From contig JAQTMG010000006.1 of assembly GCA_028714455.1 (NCBI GenBank), positions 1-56,443 on the forward strand: a stretch of 56,443 nt of DNA, read 5' to 3'. Under the pieces are notes generated by a model, which saw only the letters and a list, made by a program, of their open reading frames with translations, ran no database searches and was not told where the DNA came from. Numbering within the stretch: the stretch's first letter is position 1; the number at the start of each line of letters is the position of its first letter. The translations under genes and the position numbers were made by a program. Shown here one piece after another: positions 25,917-31,117 of this stretch. Source of the DNA: Patescibacteria group bacterium (lineage in GTDB: Bacteria > Patescibacteriota > Patescibacteriia > CAIXNZ01).

Positions 25917-26297
25917 TTAAGCTTCAAGAACGTCCTTTAACCTTATTAAAACCGTTTGTTGGAATGGAGATTTAATGCCATTTTCATCCCATTCAAAATA
26001 AATTAGTTCAGTATTATTTGTGTCAATTGGCTTATAGGTATATCTAACATGATATGTTCCGTTAATCATTTTTAATTCAAACAGCTCGTTCTGCTTTAGA
26101 TCTATAACTTTATATTCATTCCAAACCCCATCATTGCCGATATTCCTATATCTAGATCCGACTTTTATCGGCCACTCATTTGTTTCCTCCTTCTGCACAT
26201 TATCAATCCAAAGATGAGTGTTTTTCGGGTTTATGGTGAATTCAAACACTTCACTAATAGGTCTTTTTATTTCTATTGAAATTTTATTCTCTTTCAT
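25917..26297 (-). CDS. SRPBCC-superfamily (START/AHSA1-like) protein
   Basis: 126 aa. Pattern IEIKRPISEVFEFTINPKNTHLW typical of SRPBCC N-termini. Confidence 0.65.
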   Translation of the reverse strand: MKENKISIEIKRPISEVFEFTINPKNTHLWIDNVQKEETNEWPIKVGSRYRNIGNDGVWNEYKVIDLKQNELFELKMINGTYHVRYTYKPIDTNNTELIYFEWDENGIKSPFQQTVLIRLKDVLEA

Positions 26298-26369
26298 ATT
26301 TACATTATATCACCTTGGTTCGATTCCTTTGTGGGTTACAAAAAAATAAATGTTAGTATTTATATTATA

Positions 26370-26392
26370 ACAAAAAAAGAGCAAATGCTCTC
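26370..26392 (-). terminator. Intrinsic terminator closing the tRNA-Trp transcription unit
   Basis: AGAGCA/TGCTCT stem followed by U7 on the minus strand. Confidence 0.55.
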
Positions 26393-26505
26393 TTCTTGTA
26401 AAATTTTTGCAGGTCTGCACCTGCCGAAGTCTGCCGAATTTTAACATGCGCGAAAGTCTGCCTTCGCAATCCCAGCCGTGCTGGTCTTGCTTCGGCAGAC
26501 GAAGG

Positions 26506-26576
26506 CAGGGGCGGTAGGAATCGAACCCACGTCCACGGTTTTGGAGACCGTCATACTACCATTGTACTACGCCCCC
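26506..26576 (-). tRNA. tRNA-Trp(CCA)
   Basis: 71 nt. Acceptor GGGGGCG/CGCCCCT, anticodon loop CTCCAAA, T-arm GTGGG-TTCGATT-CCTAC. Confidence 0.9.
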
Positions 26577-26691
26577 GGGAATAAATGCTATAAAAAAATT
26601 TTATCATTTTTTCAAAAAAATATCAATTGTATTGTATTTTATCCATTTTAAAGATAAAATTAAATTATTAATTGTGTTAACTACAACATAT

Positions 26692-26976
26692 ATGAAACCA
26701 GAACAACCGCCAGTAGAAAAGGAGCAAACACCAGAAGAAATAAAATCGATACTAGAAAGTGCTTTAAAAAATGAACAGCACGTTGATTTAGTAATTGTTA
26801 ATTCTGAAGGAAAACCAGAGCCAACCCCTGATTTAATTGTTGAAGAACTGGAAAATGACTACGCCATGATGACATATATTGATAGTGATGGCGACCTAGG
26901 AGAATCAATTCCTCTTGATTTGAAACGTGTAAAAAAAGCGACCTTAAGAGCCAAGGCAGAGAAAACTGATATATAA
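26692..26976 (+). CDS. Hypothetical acidic protein (only plus-strand CDS)
   Basis: Start taken at MKPEQPPVEKEQ. Followed by a terminator at 26988..27016. Confidence 0.5.
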   Translation: MKPEQPPVEKEQTPEEIKSILESALKNEQHVDLVIVNSEGKPEPTPDLIVEELENDYAMMTYIDSDGDLGESIPLDLKRVKKATLRAKAEKTDI

Positions 26977-26987
26977 CCTTCCATAAA

Positions 26988-27016
26988 TAAAAAACTCCCG
27001 CATGTAGGAGTTTTTT
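26988..27016. terminator. Bidirectional terminator between convergent genes
   Basis: AAAAACTCC-CGCATGT-AGGAGTTTTT. Confidence 0.65.
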
Positions 27017-27042
27017 ATTGTATCCAATGGCACGGTTTGCAT

Positions 27043-27198
27043 TTATTTTGTTTCTTTGTGTTCTGTGTGTTTTTTGCAGTGTTTGCAGTATTTATTCAAG
27101 TGCAATCTCTCCTTGAGAGTTTTTTTATTTTTGTAGGTATGATAATTGGTTTTCTTACATACCGTGCATTCTAACTTGATCAGGTTGTCTTGTGACAT
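27043..27198 (-). CDS. rpmG: 50S ribosomal protein L33
   Basis: Own translation, 51 aa: [51 protein letters not shown]. Cys-x2-Cys pairs and length typical of L33. Below the ORF-track size cutoff. Confidence 0.85.
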
Positions 27199-27218
27199 AA
27201 ATATACTATTAAATATTA

Positions 27219-27308
27219 AATTCTAAATACTAAATCCTAATTTCTAAACAAATTCTAAATTCTAATATACAAATGTTTTAGAGTTTAGATATTAGAGTTT
27301 AGGATTTA
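27219..27308. repeat. TTCTAAA/CTAAAT word spacer with inverted TTAGAG words
   Basis: attctaaatactaaatcctaatttctaaacaaattctaaattctaat followed by ttagagtttagatattagagtttaggattt. Confidence 0.5.
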
Positions 27309-27313
27309 CCGTG

Positions 27314-27386
27314 AGCCACCTCTCGGATTCGAACCGAGGACCTACTGTTTACAAAACAGTTGCTCTACCAGCTGAGCTAAGGTGGC
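27314..27386 (-). tRNA. tRNA-Thr(UGU)
   Basis: 73 nt. Acceptor GCCACCT/AGGTGGC, anticodon loop TTTGTAA, T-arm CTCGG-TTCGAAT-CCGAG. Confidence 0.9.
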
Positions 27387-27466
27387 AAAATTTTATTTTA
27401 TTTTCAAACTCTCGGTGTTGTTACCTTAGCGAAATCGTCCATAATTATTTAATATCTAGATGCCTG

Positions 27467-27512
27467 CCCCGCATATCGAGCGAAGCGAGATGTTGCGGGG
27501 AGCTAAGGTGGC
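27467..27512 (-). other. 13-nt duplicate of the tRNA-Thr(UGU) 5' end fused to a CCCCGCA/TGCGGGG hairpin
   Basis: Minus strand GCCACCTTAGCTC (27512..27500) equals the first 13 nt of the tRNA at 27386. It runs directly into CCCCGCA-21 nt-TGCGGGG. Confidence 0.6.
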
Positions 27513-27518
27513 AAATAT

Positions 27519-27998
27519 TTAAGCGAATTTTCCAACAAGGATCCCAATCAAAATTGCTGCGCCGCCAAGCACAACCATTCTGATGCCGCGGCTGATTAAA
27601 CTGACATTGGAAATTTTGGCCATGGCTATGCCGACAAAAAATAAAGCCAAAATGGAAAAGGCAATGGAAATATATAATGCTGACGACAGACCAAAAATTA
27701 TATACGGCAAAATCGGTATTAAGGATGCCAGTACAAATGAAACAAACATTACCAAAGCCGCCACATAAGGTCCTTTATGAAAAATTGATTTTTGGGCCTT
27801 ATATTCCAGAGTGCACTGCTCTGAAAGATAGCCGCCGACTGCCATGGAAAATGCCTCAACAAAAGCATAAATTAAACCAGTTGTAATAATGGCTATCCTA
27901 GTGGTACCGCTGACGTCAATGCCAGCGAGCAAACCAACAGTAGAAACTAAGCTGTCGGCGATGCCAAAAACTATATTTCTAACGTAAACTTCATTCAT
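27519..27998 (-). CDS. VIT1/CCC1-family iron/manganese transporter
   Basis: FGIADSLVSTVGLLAGI and VEAFSMAVGGYLSE motifs. Start at MNEVYV; the longer ORF runs through a perfect hairpin. Confidence 0.8.
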   Translation of the reverse strand: MNEVYVRNIVFGIADSLVSTVGLLAGIDVSGTTRIAIITTGLIYAFVEAFSMAVGGYLSEQCTLEYKAQKSIFHKGPYVAALVMFVSFVLASLIPILPYIIFGLSSALYISIAFSILALFFVGIAMAKISNVSLISRGIRMVVLGGAAILIGILVGKFA

Positions 27999-28011
27999 AA
28001 TTTTAAACTTT

Positions 28012-28035
28012 TTCGGTGGGTCTAGACCCACCGAA
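28012..28035. other. Perfect palindromic hairpin 14 nt upstream of the VIT1 start
   Basis: TTCGGTGGGTC-TA-GACCCACCGAA, 11-nt arms. No U-run in either direction, so it is not called a terminator. Confidence 0.6.
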
Positions 28036-28097
28036 GCCCGACTGATTATTTAATAATTATCTTGCCCTCCTTCGCATAAAGCTACGGAGGGCGAAGG

Positions 28098-28304
28098 TGG
28101 GCAGGGGTAGATTCGAACTACCGAAGGCTTACGCCAGCAGATTTATCCCGCACCAAAATACAACGACTATTGGGCGGAGTAGGATTCGAACCTACGAAGC
28201 CGTGAGGCAACAGATTTACAGTCTGTCCCATTTGACCGCTTTGGTATCCGCCCTTATTTATATTTTTGGTGCGGGACCCCAGTTGACCGCTTTGGTACCG
28301 ACCC
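28098..28304 (-). other. Split tRNA-Tyr-like gene whose halves are joined by a 13-bp helix enclosing tRNA-Tyr
   Basis: 5' half 28304..28277 (acceptor plus D-arm, 23/28 identical to the real tRNA-Tyr). Helix strands 28276..28264 and 28158..28146. 3' half 28145..28098 with variable arm, T-arm GGTAG-TTCGAAT-CTACC and acceptor strand. Confidence 0.6.
28171..28253 (-). tRNA. tRNA-Tyr(GUA), class II with long variable arm
   Basis: 83 nt. Acceptor GGGCGGA/TCCGCCC, anticodon loop CTGTAAA, variable arm TGCCTCACGGCTTC, T-arm GTAGG-TTCGAAT-CCTAC. Confidence 0.9.
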
Positions 28305-28403
28305 AGAGTTAATAAAAAGTTCTGATTAAAAAATCAAAACCTTTACAAACTCTATTATATAAAATTATTAAAAAAAAATCAAGGTCTATTGTCACTCTAA
28401 TAT

Positions 28404-28637
28404 TCAAGGATAATCTATGCAGCTTTCAAAATTATCGGGGCGGCACCTTTGCAGCCTTTGCCAACTTTTTTTACAACCCTTCCAAAAACCATATTTTTGA
28501 ATTGCCATAACTGCATATTCAGAACAGGTGGGATAAAAACGACAATGCACCCAGCGGCTCAAAATTTTGGATAACGTCTTTTGATAAAGAATAATTGCTT
28601 TTATGGCTATTTTTTTCTGCAAATTATTAAACTTCAT
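28404..28637 (-). CDS. yidD: Membrane protein insertion efficiency factor YidD
   Basis: CRFYPTCSEYAVMAIQKYGFWKG motif, 77 aa. Confidence 0.85.
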   Translation of the reverse strand: MKFNNLQKKIAIKAIILYQKTLSKILSRWVHCRFYPTCSEYAVMAIQKYGFWKGCKKSWQRLQRCRPDNFESCIDYP

Positions 28638-28968
28638 AATTTATCTGCTCCTTTATTATTGCTCTGGAATTGCATTTCGGACATTTATCAAAATTAACTA
28701 TATTCTTGTGATAAACATTTCCAGCGCCATAACAACCTAAACGGTAACAACCCAAATTATTTCTGGCATTTTCTTTCAGATCTTTTTTGCCATAATACCA
28801 AACATTACCGCAAGACTGACAAGTGCATTTTGTTTCCTGAATTTTTTTACCCTGATTATTAGGTGCAATATTCCCTGCGACTGGAGTATTATCAAATTTA
28901 GTTTTACAATATCGGCAAAAAATCGCTTCATCTTTTATTTCTTCAGCACAAGATGGACATTTTTTCAT
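28627..28968 (-). CDS. Multi-zinc-ribbon protein, hypothetical
   Basis: 113 aa. CPSC..CRYC, CQSC and CPKC pairs. Confidence 0.6.
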   Translation of the reverse strand: MKKCPSCAEEIKDEAIFCRYCKTKFDNTPVAGNIAPNNQGKKIQETKCTCQSCGNVWYYGKKDLKENARNNLGCYRLGCYGAGNVYHKNIVNFDKCPKCNSRAIIKEQINYEV

Positions 28969-29969
28969 AAAATTCTTTTTTTTAATAATAAAAGGTGATG
29001 ATTATATGCCTCTGTAAAATTATTAAATGCATCAAAATTACTAAACAAATATCCCTCTTCCAAACCATCTTCCGATTGAAATAATAATTGTCCATATTTA
29101 ACAATGGGAATTTGATAATTCGCGTTAAATCGCTTGTCCATAGTTCCATCTTTATTCGCCTTCTTCCACGTGTGGTTAATAATCTCAGTATCTTTTGGGA
29201 CACTTTCTTCTTCAATATATCCCGTAAGTTCAAAAACACCCTTTACATCTTTTAGGTCAAAAATGCCAAATTTCTGATTATCTTTAAATAAAACTATGAA
29301 AGTAGGATAAATAAATATATCAGCACCGTTAGCATTGGGGAGAAAAAGATAATCTAAATCACTTTTTATAAAATCAATATCCTTTCGAATATTACCGCTG
29401 ATTAGACTACGCTTTATTGAAGTTTTTGCAATTGTTCTCATCTTCACCCTGTCCGCATCTTCTGTATATGTTAAATCCCATATTTTTTCGCTTTTCATTA
29501 GTTCAATGAAGGCATCAGTACAATTTAACCAACTCTTTTCAATTTGAGATTTATCTAAAAAGGTAAGTTTTACATAATTTTCTGAAATTTGTTTTTCAAA
29601 TCTTTTTATCTCTATTCGTTGATTACTTCTAGCCTCTTTAATTTTTTTGTAGAAAAAACCAAATATTAAAATAAAACTAACAAAGTAAGCGAAATTTAAC
29701 CAAAAAAGTTTAAATTTTGCTGATTGTAGTTTTTTAAGGAGTTCTATTTTTTGATTATGAATTTCTGTTATCCGTTGACGTAATTCAACAAAATTTTTAC
29801 TTGTAACATCGAGAGCTTTATTAGAGCTTCTTATAACATTGCCTACATTAAAATCATCTTTGCTCTCATATTTTTCATTATTATCAGCCAAACTACTTCC
29901 ACAATGTTTACATTTTATAGCTTCATATTGTATTTCTTCAGCACAATAAGGACATTTTTTTGTAGCCAT
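28965..29969 (-). CDS. Zinc-ribbon / coiled-coil / single-TM protein with unknown C-terminal domain
   Basis: 334 aa. N-terminal CPYC..CKHC, TM FWLNFAYFVSFILIFGFFY. ATGA overlap with the next gene. Confidence 0.6.
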   Translation of the reverse strand: MATKKCPYCAEEIQYEAIKCKHCGSSLADNNEKYESKDDFNVGNVIRSSNKALDVTSKNFVELRQRITEIHNQKIELLKKLQSAKFKLFWLNFAYFVSFILIFGFFYKKIKEARSNQRIEIKRFEKQISENYVKLTFLDKSQIEKSWLNCTDAFIELMKSEKIWDLTYTEDADRVKMRTIAKTSIKRSLISGNIRKDIDFIKSDLDYLFLPNANGADIFIYPTFIVLFKDNQKFGIFDLKDVKGVFELTGYIEEESVPKDTEIINHTWKKANKDGTMDKRFNANYQIPIVKYGQLLFQSEDGLEEGYLFSNFDAFNNFTEAYNHHLLLLKKRIL

Positions 29970-29974
29970 AATAA

Positions 29975-30201
29975 TAAACTAGTAATTATTTATGATATGC
30001 CAGGGTATTACTTCTCACGATACCAGCTGCCATATTACTCAAAATTGAGCCGTTGCGCGGAATTGCCTGTCCGCCGACCTTCGTCGGTCGAAACCGACTT
30101 CGGTCGGTGAAGACCGAAGTGCAATAAAGGCGGAAACCGCGGACCTACTCCTTACTCCCGAACTATGCTTCGCAAGTTCGGGACAGGCATGGAGTTGCGG
30201 C
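29975..30201 (-). other. GC-rich structured trailer/leader RNA region (unclassified)
   Basis: Nested helices CCCGAACT/AGTTCGGG and CTTCGGTC/GACCGAAG, plus CCGAC/GTCGG words, in a region much more GC-rich than the flanking genes. Confidence 0.35.
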
Positions 30202-30309
30202 ATTTATCCCGCACCTTCTAAAAAAGCCCACGAGCAGATTTGAACTGCTGACCACCTCCTTACCATGGAGGTGCTCTACCAACTGAGCTACGTGGGCAGA
30301 AGGTGCGGG
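30202..30309 (-). other. 12-bp leader-trailer helix clamping tRNA-Thr(GGU)
   Basis: CCCGCACCTTCT (30309..30298) abuts the tRNA 5' end. AGAAGGTGCGGG (30219..30208) follows the tRNA 3' end after U5. Trailer continues ATAAAT. Confidence 0.7.
30225..30297 (-). tRNA. tRNA-Thr(GGU)
   Basis: 73 nt. Acceptor GCCCACG/CGTGGGC, anticodon loop ATGGTAA, T-arm AGCAG-TTCAAAT-CTGCT. Confidence 0.9.
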
Positions 30310-30325
30310 GCCAGCTGAGCTGGCA

Positions 30326-31117
30326 TTACAAATTATTTAATTCTTTTTCAAACTCAAGAATCTTTTGATTTTCAGGATTAACCTCCTTAAGGGTAGCTAG
30401 AGTACGACTGGCAGTTTCCTTGTCTTTCGCTAAAATGCTTGAGGTCAAAAGTAAATCAAGATACTTCGGATTGTTCGGTGCGCTTGCCAAGGCTTTAATA
30501 AGCTTGGCTTGAGCCTCTTCATGATTACCTGATGCTTCGGCAATTTCTCCCAAGCTGGCGTAAGCCAGAGCGTCTTGCTCGTTTAATTTAAGTACGTGCT
30601 CAAAGGTTTGCTTGGCTTCTTCATAGTGTTTTTGGTCTAGATAGATATTGCCTAGACCGCGATAAGCAGAAATATTTTTCGGGTCCAAGCCAATCGCTTC
30701 AATATATTTTTTTTCGGCTAAATCGTAATTTTCTTCTTTGGCCAGTTTCTCTGCTTCAGCGATGACCTCGTCTAAATTTTTCTCCAAACCCTCAAACTCT
30801 TTCTTGGTAACTAAAACTTCTTTTTTCGCTTTTTTTCTATTTCTTTCTTCCAGCGCCGCCATCTTATTTTTAAAATCGTCAATTTTTCTCGCCAAAAAAT
30901 TTCCTATGGTTTTGAAAATCGGGTGTATTTTGCTGTAAATGTGCTTGGCTTTTCTGATCAACCTTTCCTCCATTATTTTCTGCTTGGTCTCCGCCTCTTT
31001 TTCTTCCGGAATTGAATTAACGTCAAAAGCGGCCAGAAGCGGCAATTTCTTGGCGATGATAAATAAAATCACGGCCAAAGAAAGCAAAATAATAATAAGT
31101 GGAATGATGTTGTACAT
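30326..31117 (-). CDS. TPR-repeat protein with N-terminal TM anchor
   Basis: 263 aa. TM, Lys/Glu coiled-coil, then TPR units (AYRGLGNIYLDQKHYEEAKQTFEHVLKLNEQDALAY...). Confidence 0.75.
   Translation of the reverse strand: MYNIIPLIIILLSLAVILFIIAKKLPLLAAFDVNSIPEEKEAETKQKIMEERLIRKAKHIYSKIHPIFKTIGNFLARKIDDFKNKMAALEERNRKKAKKEVLVTKKEFEGLEKNLDEVIAEAEKLAKEENYDLAEKKYIEAIGLDPKNISAYRGLGNIYLDQKHYEEAKQTFEHVLKLNEQDALAYASLGEIAEASGNHEEAQAKLIKALASAPNNPKYLDLLLTSSILAKDKETASRTLATLKEVNPENQKILEFEKELNNL

Follow-up and report, generated by a model that had tools for sequence, protein, structure and literature searches.

A hairpin-ended cassette carrying its own tRNA gene as the probable cause of a broken tRNA-Thr(GGU) gene in a Patescibacteria group bacterium

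We find that the intact tRNA-Thr(GGU) gene on a 56,443-nucleotide (nt) contig of a Patescibacteria group bacterium (assembly GCA_028714455.1, contig JAQTMG010000006.1; the whole contig is hereafter the window) lies inside the broken remains of a second tRNA-Thr(GGU) gene, and that a 12-bp helix formed by its flanks separates the one from the other. The arms of this helix are probably (we would put it at about 70%) the terminal inverted repeats of a hairpin-ended cassette of ~105 nt (30310..30206, minus strand), which broke the resident gene and brought a substitute. An earlier sequence-only reading of the window had offered two explanations for the helix, a processing signal shared by tRNA precursors and the ends of a small mobile cassette that carries tRNAs. 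The second of these is supported by the nesting of one tRNA gene within another, by empty orthologous sites in relatives and by the presence of the same repeats around a GIY-YIG nuclease gene and around other tRNAs. That the cassette is mobile, which enzyme moves it and how it came to sit in a cognate target we infer from comparison of sequences.

Results

The window is contig C6 of an 893-kb genome (G000; 16 contigs, 41% G+C, scored 100% complete) that encodes tmRNA and 46 tRNA genes. The nearest named relatives of its TpiA protein are Candidatus Buchananbacteria and Falkowbacteria bins, which places the organism among the ultra-small Patescibacteria (Candidate Phyla Radiation); it seems to have been sampled in a landfill metagenome. 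On the minus strand, CCCGCACCTTCT (30309..30298) abuts base 1 of the tRNA and pairs perfectly over 12 bp with AGAAGGTGCGGG (30219..30208) beyond its 3' end; both letters and coordinates are as first described. The helix scores 32, whereas 30 shuffled trailers average 15.6 and do not exceed 21. The claim that it stacks on the acceptor stem stands for the 5' arm, but stacking is continuous on that strand only, because TTTTT parts the tRNA from the 3' arm. The plus-strand 14-mer ATTTATCCCGCACC begins at 30202 and again at 28141, at the tRNA-Tyr locus. Between these loci the four outer pairs are not the same yet remain complementary (TTCT/AGAA at Thr(GGU), AAAA/TTTT at Tyr), as the sequence-only reading had noticed. 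The core words are frequent in the genome, CCCGCACC occurring 23 times and GGTGCGGG 14 times (37 in total), where we estimate from base composition that about 4 of each would be expected.

Outside the helix, remains of the resident tRNA-Thr(GGU) gene span 30324..30047 on the minus strand, and the cassette splits its D loop (Table 1). Two smaller inserts interrupt the same gene, a 32-nt hairpin in the anticodon loop and a 69-nt GC-rich element in the T loop. When all three are removed, 60 of the 62 retained bases are identical to the intact tRNA-Thr(GGU) of G012, a genome of the same family, whereas the clamped inner tRNA-Thr(GGU) matches the family-resident type at only 60 of 73 positions. The resident gene is short of 11 bases, including most of its 5' acceptor strand. 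The cassette stands in place of six of its bases; the 32-nt and 69-nt inserts are clean, and excising the former gives back the loop ATGGTAA of tRNA-Thr(GGU) exactly. The core of the 69-nt insert matches loci in two other genomes (G004 and G011). Judging from this alignment, the GC-rich stretch downstream of the tRNA is the remainder of the dead resident gene, not a separate structured RNA; Rfam searches over 26000..31000, at gathering thresholds and at E <= 1, return no family in the flanks besides tRNAs.

In other genera the site is empty. At the syntenic site, marked by tpiA, a tetratricopeptide-repeat (TPR) gene and tRNA-Thr(GGU), the resident gene is intact and clamp-free in two loci (L080 and L081; in L080 it is followed by tRNA-Tyr and tRNA-Thr(UGU)), and the tRNA-Thr(GGU)/tRNA-Tyr clusters of four genera of the same family (L006, L008, L011, L012) are likewise intact, with no clamp. 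Intact resident tRNA-Thr(GGU) genes of relatives represent one sequence type, with acceptor GCCGTTG. Leader-trailer helices at the orthologous Thr(GGU) and Tyr genes of L005-L012 reach scores of 12-22 at best, inside the shuffle range. G002, of the same genus and 96% identical over this region, likewise contains the nest with its anticodon insert, and one contig of the public sequencing run X4 omits exactly the 69 bases of the T-loop insert. This insert is recent, because G002 shares the nest but has an uninterrupted T arm. From the second same-genus genome, G001, the region retrieved was an Arg-Ala-Val tRNA cluster, so it is uninformative on the Thr(GGU) site. The public-run contigs that we compared are DNA only, and most tRNA joints in them belong to other organisms.

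tRNA-Thr(GGU) is one of eight tRNAs, out of 46 in the genome, with a leader-trailer helix well above the shuffle range. Pieces of the cognate tRNA flank Ser(UGA), Ile, Phe, Tyr, Leu(UAG), Ser(GGA) and Cys on both sides, and all readable nests are cognate. The outer halves at Ser(UGA), 31 and 51 nt long, are perfectly identical to the inner gene; at Ile, two compensated pairs distinguish the inner from the outer acceptor stem. The spacing of arm and tRNA is irregular among the clamped tRNAs, 0-29 nt at the 5' end and 0-16 nt at the 3' end. The sister cassette around tRNA-Tyr is nested in a broken resident tRNA-Tyr (~28306..28278 and 28144..28096), a GGGTCGG-type gene that is intact in G002 and in other genera, and one contig of run X2 lacks 131 bases at this cassette. 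tRNA-Ser(GGA) is clamped by arms with a different core, CCAGCACC.

With the outer genes recognized, which the sequence-only reading had overlooked, other parts of the first description take on a different meaning. The small hairpin into which the trailer was said to continue at both loci is real in its letters, but it is not a separate conserved module. It is a junction, because the 3' half seen at the Tyr locus (AAATCTGC) belongs to the broken resident tRNA-Tyr, as its anticodon loop and stem, and G002 reads GGGGTAAATGCCGC at the corresponding position of the Thr locus. The Tyr and Phe cassettes too have GGGATAAA, from the junction letters at Thr(GGU), after the arm. The degenerate third copy near tRNA-Thr(UGU) is present at 27500..27467, as a stand-alone hairpin; no fragment of this kind was found upstream of tRNA-Thr(UGU) in G002.

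The small hairpin inserts carry an asymmetric CAGG tail, reading hairpin-CAGG on one strand or CCTG-hairpin on the other (30066-30134, 27463-27466, 30184-30187). The genome contains 114 occurrences of CCTGCCC and GGGCAGG together, compared with 22 of CCCGTCC and GGACGGG, which have the same composition. Beside strictly defined hairpin ends, CCTG/CAGG is found at 7 of 334 hairpins where ~2 are expected, a weak signal, and the word counts are clearer. The asymmetric tail and the word excess hint at a strand-specific mechanism that acts on single strands.

Eight GIY-YIG matches are found in the genome, seven of them in small open reading frames (ORFs). One of these, P0001, is an 87-aa single-domain GIY-YIG protein (PF01541, 63.2 bits, profile positions 1-73 of 78), whose ORF lies between TCCCGCACCTTTTTCA and TGAAAAAGGTGCGGGA, 16-bp perfect inverted repeats made of the clamp core and a T-rich extension. 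With 329 nt in all, the cassette interrupts a variable helix region of the 23S rRNA gene. Among the 32 best P0001 homologues, from other genera, ~16 are bracketed by inverted repeats in the same way. These repeats are perfect over 13-23 bp, lie mostly 0-25 nt from the ORF ends, and have the core CCCGCACC, CCCCACACC, CCCTCACAC or CCAGCACC, each with an extension of its own; the cassettes occur in rRNA genes (16S and 23S) and RNase P-like RNA genes, at tRNA 5' ends and in other places. The homologues that are not bracketed stand mostly beside tRNAs. Arms ATCCCGCACC and GGTGCGGGAT enclose GIY-YIG genes at L050 and L051, and in two nuclease cassettes the arms run on into tRNA-derived letters. In the one case tested, G183, arm type seems to track the type of nuclease cassette: its GIY-YIG cassette has CCCCACACC arms, a tRNA-Gly is clamped by CCCACACC, and the CCCGCAC clamp is absent. 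The GIY-YIG cassettes at L064 (G128) and L071 (G062), with arms CCCTCACAC and CCCCGCACC, adjoin sequence that contains GGAAAGTCCG, and the genes that they interrupt are apparently those of RNase P RNA. In G000, inverted repeats of quite another type (GTCATTC..GAGCG..) bracket two more small GIY-YIG genes (C7:32600-33150 and C2:161650-162250), and each nuclease gene may have a repeat family of its own.

By the distribution of its arms, the family is widespread within this patescibacterial class, and those members that carry a gene hold a predicted single-domain GIY-YIG nuclease of ~87 aa. The pattern CCCGCAC-N80-140-GTGCGGG is found in 117 of 401 sampled genomes of the class, in up to 36 copies in some genomes, and the reversed control pattern is rare. 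Enclosed tRNAs include Ile, Lys, Val, Met, Gln, Glu, Gly, Pro, Thr, Leu, Ser and Ala, and outer cognate halves are visible in several of these genomes; elsewhere the arms hold an A/T-rich body of ~100 nt, a protein gene or a bare loop. In 47 cassettes, positions +2 to +6 past the core are paired in 30-35, compared with 18-22 when the arms are re-dealt, and both A-T and T-A pairs are frequent. The search for the motif beyond its first locus, which the sequence-only reading had proposed together with a list of the clamped tRNAs, thus finds arms that recur in the genome and in the class and outer pairs that covary. That reading had been staked on two expectations, recurrence of the motif and complementarity at orthologous tRNA-Thr and tRNA-Tyr loci; the orthologous loci lack complementarity, but the motif is found widely elsewhere. 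Its suggestion that pairing itself is preserved is right for the cassette family as a whole, because the arm extensions covary over the 47 cassettes, rather than for tRNA processing specifically. Extension pairing may reflect a requirement for a hairpin, or one arm may be copied from the other.

Several features of the tRNA neighbourhoods stand beside these results. Further intact tRNAs of the genome have self-derived partial copies before or after them, joined via small GC hairpins. Downstream of intact Met, Lys, Leu(CAG) and Leu(GAG) genes, the T arm and 3' end of the gene itself are repeated in part, between one and three times; for Met, Leu(CAG) and Leu(GAG) the GC hairpin stands at one T-loop position, between TT and C, and the Lys copy is joined by a GC hairpin. 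Partial copies of T arm and 3' end are likewise found after tRNA-Thr(GGU) in G002, L011 and L086. In the window, the segment 28404-29969 between the Thr(GGU) and Tyr modules encodes two zinc-ribbon proteins and a YidD-like gene; it is absent from G002, where the two modules are only ~300 nt apart. Between tRNA-Tyr and tRNA-Thr(UGU), G002 (L002) has a GIY-YIG-like ORF with an in-frame TAA, a place occupied in the window by the gene of a 170-aa membrane protein (27519-28031). G002 also has a broken 5' copy of tRNA-Tyr, interrupted twice, upstream of its intact gene.

Table 1. Coordinates of the cassettes, of the broken resident gene and of other features (in the window unless a contig is named)
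Feature	Coordinates	Strand	Basis or remark
tRNA-Thr(GGU) cargo, complete, foreign sequence type (GCCCACG acceptor)	30225..30297	minus	ARAGORN; Rfam tRNA 69.1 bits
Left cassette arm CCCCGCACCTTCT, 5' clamp strand	30298..30310	minus	arm also in same-genus G002
T5 spacer, tRNA 3' end to right arm	30220..30224	minus	T4 in G002 and in contigs of runs X2 and X3
Right cassette arm AGAAGGTGCGGG plus AT of the GGGAT end	30206..30219	minus	
Resident 5' remnant, bases 1-3 and 9-19 (4-8 missing)	30311..30324	minus	alignment to intact gene of G012/L008
Junction letters AAATGCCGC, in place of missing resident bases 20-25	30197..30205	minus	
Resident bases 26-34 (AACTCCATG)	30188..30196	minus	alignment
32-nt hairpin insert (CCTG + 8-bp stem), between anticodon bases 34/35	30156..30187	minus	also in G002
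Resident bases 35-55	30135..30155	minus	alignment
69-nt GC-rich T-loop insert (TCCGCC..GGCGGA + CAGG), between bases 55/56	30066..30134	minus	
Resident bases 56-73 plus one (T loop, T stem, 3' acceptor strand)	30047..30065	minus	alignment
Sister cassette, arms GTCCCGCACCAAAA / TTTTGGTGCGGGAT around tRNA-Tyr (28253..28171)	28145..28277	minus	
13-nt copy of the tRNA-Thr(UGU) 5' end, hairpin CCCCGCA..TGCGGGG, CAGG	27463..27512	minus	~75 nt upstream of intact tRNA 27386..27313
P0001 cassette, 329-nt insert in 23S rRNA gene, variable helix region	G000:C5:50586-50912		L043/L049
Partial-copy locus, Met	C3:44938-45140		
Partial-copy locus, Lys	C3:45234-45360		
Partial-copy locus, Leu(CAG)	C5:55250-55337		
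Partial-copy locus, Leu(GAG)	C13:5742-5803		
Y1 transposase ORF	C3:93816-94397		
Y1 transposase ORF	C7:25780-26346		
Y1 transposase ORF	C3:77628-78305		
Y1 transposase ORF	C3:30516-31082		
Y1 transposase ORF	C7:19052-19495		

Discussion

The series of events that we propose begins with a cassette that enters the resident tRNA-Thr(GGU) gene at its D loop and would thereby destroy it. The tRNA brought as cargo would take over the resident's work, and two further small hairpin elements would later strike the dead gene, at the anticodon and at the T loop. Because the cargo tRNA does the resident's job, the cell would survive the loss of an essential single-copy gene to such an insertion. The inserts at this locus lie in the D, anticodon and T loops, and we suggest that cassettes of this family enter the loops of hairpin-forming DNA, for example those of tRNA, rRNA and RNase P RNA genes. 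The family is probably moved by a nuclease similar to the Ssn nucleases, an analogy drawn from GIY-YIG enzymes of a single domain, encoded between hairpin repeats (NTS/SRM, with NTS-ssnA-NTS units; Chenal et al. 2025, PMC11893778). These enzymes cut single-stranded DNA (ssDNA) near a hairpin and tolerate any loop, a split loop or loop extensions (PMC11893778). We propose that the arms fold as a hairpin in ssDNA and are in this form the substrate of the nuclease, because such tolerance fits arms that may enclose a loop, a tRNA or a gene. The complementarity of the extensions would then be kept either because the hairpin rather than its sequence matters, or by copying of one arm from the other.

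Like the Ssn systems, the P0001 cassette has a tiny single-domain GIY-YIG gene with recurring hairpin-forming repeats at its flanks (here one hairpin that spans the gene), repeats that are also scattered over the genome, and an architecture resembling that of an insertion sequence; in Ssn recognition, too, the content of the loop is irrelevant (PMC11893778). The differences are that here the gene lies within the loop of one large hairpin, that copies lie inside rRNA, RNase P-like RNA and tRNA genes, that some carry a tRNA instead of a nuclease, and that the system is known from sequence alone. The Ssn paper does not mention tRNA (PMC11893778). GIY-YIG-encoding inserts unlike group I or group II introns have been described in rRNA genes of the Candidate Phyla Radiation (CPR) by Tsurumaki et al. 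2024 (PMC11270868). The 329-nt 23S cassette belongs with the inserts on their list, which are sparse and occur at poorly conserved sites, at the tops or bases of stem-loops; unlike what we find here, they report neither inverted-repeat arms nor a link to tRNA, which does not appear in their main text (PMC11270868).

The terminal inverted repeats are shared by many copies and the elements are present in some relatives and absent from others (the site is empty in other genera, and the T-loop insert is in G000 and not in G002), in keeping with miniature inverted-repeat transposable elements (MITEs). Several points weigh against a mobile cassette driven by a GIY-YIG nuclease. No target-site duplication was found at three clean insert junctions; at one GIY-YIG cassette, at tRNA-Val, GGTTA is repeated. 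The tRNA cassette would have to move in trans, because it has no nuclease gene inside. Neither movement nor cleavage nor a donor of the cassette was observed; JGI metagenome contigs, scanned for exact matches to the arm-tRNA junction and to the inner tRNA, gave no second copy of the exact cassette, and among close strains in the public-run contigs the tRNA cassette shows no presence/absence polymorphism and no strain has an empty site. The polarity of insertion comes from outgroup genera. The match of cargo to cognate target lies outside the model, and our two explanations are guesses: survivorship, in which among insertions into single-copy tRNA genes only those with a working cognate copy would survive, or homologous replacement. 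The 11 letters at the junction (30207..30197) likewise lie outside the model. The nuclease gene sits within one large hairpin, unlike the two complete hairpins in Neisseria, and the only NCBIfam match of P0001 is a weak one to TIGR01453, a group I intron endonuclease. Lastly, the 0.89-Mb genome has five ORFs for Y1 (IS200/RAYT-like) transposases, which could move hairpins instead; none of the five is bracketed by CCCGCAC arms, and one has two motif words upstream.

On the one hand, the helix could be an RNA processing stem, kept to direct maturation of the tRNA precursor, for example through RNase III cleavage as at rRNA stems: a predicted fold of the transcript closes it on the acceptor stem (-137.5 kcal/mol, z = -7.8), the genome encodes RNase III, the arms covary, and in rRNA hosts the insert could be extruded or excised as an intervening sequence. 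On the other hand, 38 of the 46 tRNAs do without a helix, as do the Thr and Tyr orthologues of six other genomes; its register is not fixed, as the variable gaps on both sides show; a T5 run stands between tRNA and trailer arm; and the same arms surround a protein gene, tRNA-free bodies and bare loops. We therefore consider it improbable that a shared processing signal is the reason for the helix, although RNA processing could be a secondary benefit of the arms. The comparison with rRNA processing stems and with RNase III-cut intervening sequences of 23S rRNA is apt in that a long helix forms from both sides of a stable RNA, and by this analogy the copies in rRNA genes may behave as intervening sequences; the helix at tRNAs differs in being irregularly spaced and not conserved among orthologues.

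About equally improbable, in our judgement, is that no cargo cassette was ever involved and that the nests are by-products of repair. GC hairpins in tRNA genes would stall replication forks, template switching or patch repair would duplicate segments, and selection would keep the intact gene. The hairpin-joined partial self-copies beside Met (three tandem 68-nt units), Lys, Leu(CAG), Leu(GAG), Thr(UGU) and Arg agree with such a process, as does the failure to find target duplications or identical copies of the cassette. Yet the arms are a conserved family, common to nuclease cassettes in many genera, and at Thr and Tyr the inner gene differs in sequence type from the resident one. An outside source is needed because these inner genes are not copies of the resident genes and because the acceptor pairs at Ile differ.

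Displaced tRNA fragments beside intact genes are a classic mark of tRNA-targeting integrative elements, and displaced 5' and 3' fragments next to intact genes are abundant in this genome. A decayed element of this kind, which had carried part of a tRNA and left the fragments as a scar, is nonetheless very unlikely: the boundary repeats are inverted rather than direct, the entire insert is only ~105 nt, and a complete tRNA lies inside both old halves, where integration would give copies side by side. No integrase gene was noticed at the loci that we read, a genome-wide integrase search not having been run. In common with integrative elements, the cassette has a tRNA as target, supplies a replacement sequence, keeps the function and leaves the old fragment behind; its inverted boundaries, its size of ~100 nt and the whole tRNA nested between the old halves set it apart. 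Least credible of all is an intron-like system with a functional outer tRNA, split, permuted or interrupted, whose inserts are removed from the RNA: the D-, anticodon- and T-loop positions recall the multi-intron tRNAs of Thermoproteales and removal of the 32-nt insert restores the anticodon loop, but we dropped this candidate given the 11 missing resident bases, the want of a bulge-helix-bulge (3-nt bulges around a 4-bp helix) at any junction and of a tRNA-splicing endonuclease (PF01974) in a genome scored as complete, inserts too small for self-splicing, and an intact cognate tRNA that is always present.

The archaeal systems, mobile tRNA introns and split tRNAs of Thermoproteales and Nanoarchaeum (PMC10714607), are still instructive for comparison with the proposed cassette. 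There as here, related inserts lie at several non-canonical positions in many tRNAs and GC-rich complementary leader sequences are found (PMC10714607); here, in contrast, the host is a bacterium, neither the endonuclease nor its motif was found, and the interrupted gene is dead and replaced. REP (repetitive extragenic palindromic) sequences and REPINs, with their RAYT transposases (REP-associated tyrosine transposases; Y1, IS200/IS605-like), share with our elements short GC-rich palindromes with variable centres, an asymmetric tail (here CAGG), strand specificity and abundance, and differ in that the Y1 genes of this genome lack CCCGCAC arms. To our knowledge REPs are extragenic and neither carry tRNA genes nor nest in them.

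A further idea is tentative, and we would sooner bet against it than for it. The cassettes may be self-compensating gene-replacement elements, sent by a family of hairpin-specific ssDNA nucleases into loops of RNA genes that are essential and single-copy. Variants whose cargo is an intact version of the destroyed tRNA, itself resistant to cutting, would kill and replace the resident allele and in this way spread through populations. Such elements would move tRNA genes between Patescibacteria lineages, which would explain both the foreign tRNAs and the dead shells.

In the usual view, bacterial tRNA genes are targeted only by integrase-type islands or by group I introns. In the case described here, an essential single-copy tRNA gene appears to have been destroyed by a hairpin-ended insert of ~100 nt that supplies the substitute. 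The literature that we searched, with incomplete coverage, gave no description of nested bacterial tRNA genes. As far as this search goes, three results are new: the resolution of the Thr(GGU) shell into resident bases and three inserts, the finding that the 23S GIY-YIG cassette has identical arms, and statistics on the arms across the whole family. Through its arms the tRNA insert is tied to a tiny GIY-YIG cassette, which has settled in rRNA and RNase P-like RNA genes as well. If this link holds, Ssn-like ssDNA nucleases would have a biological role and a natural class of targets in ultra-small bacteria, and the unclassified GIY-YIG inserts in CPR rRNA genes would be explained. It would also call for caution in annotation, given that a 'structured RNA' next to a CPR tRNA can prove to be the shell of a dead tRNA gene, and it would provide a route for the horizontal replacement of tRNA genes.

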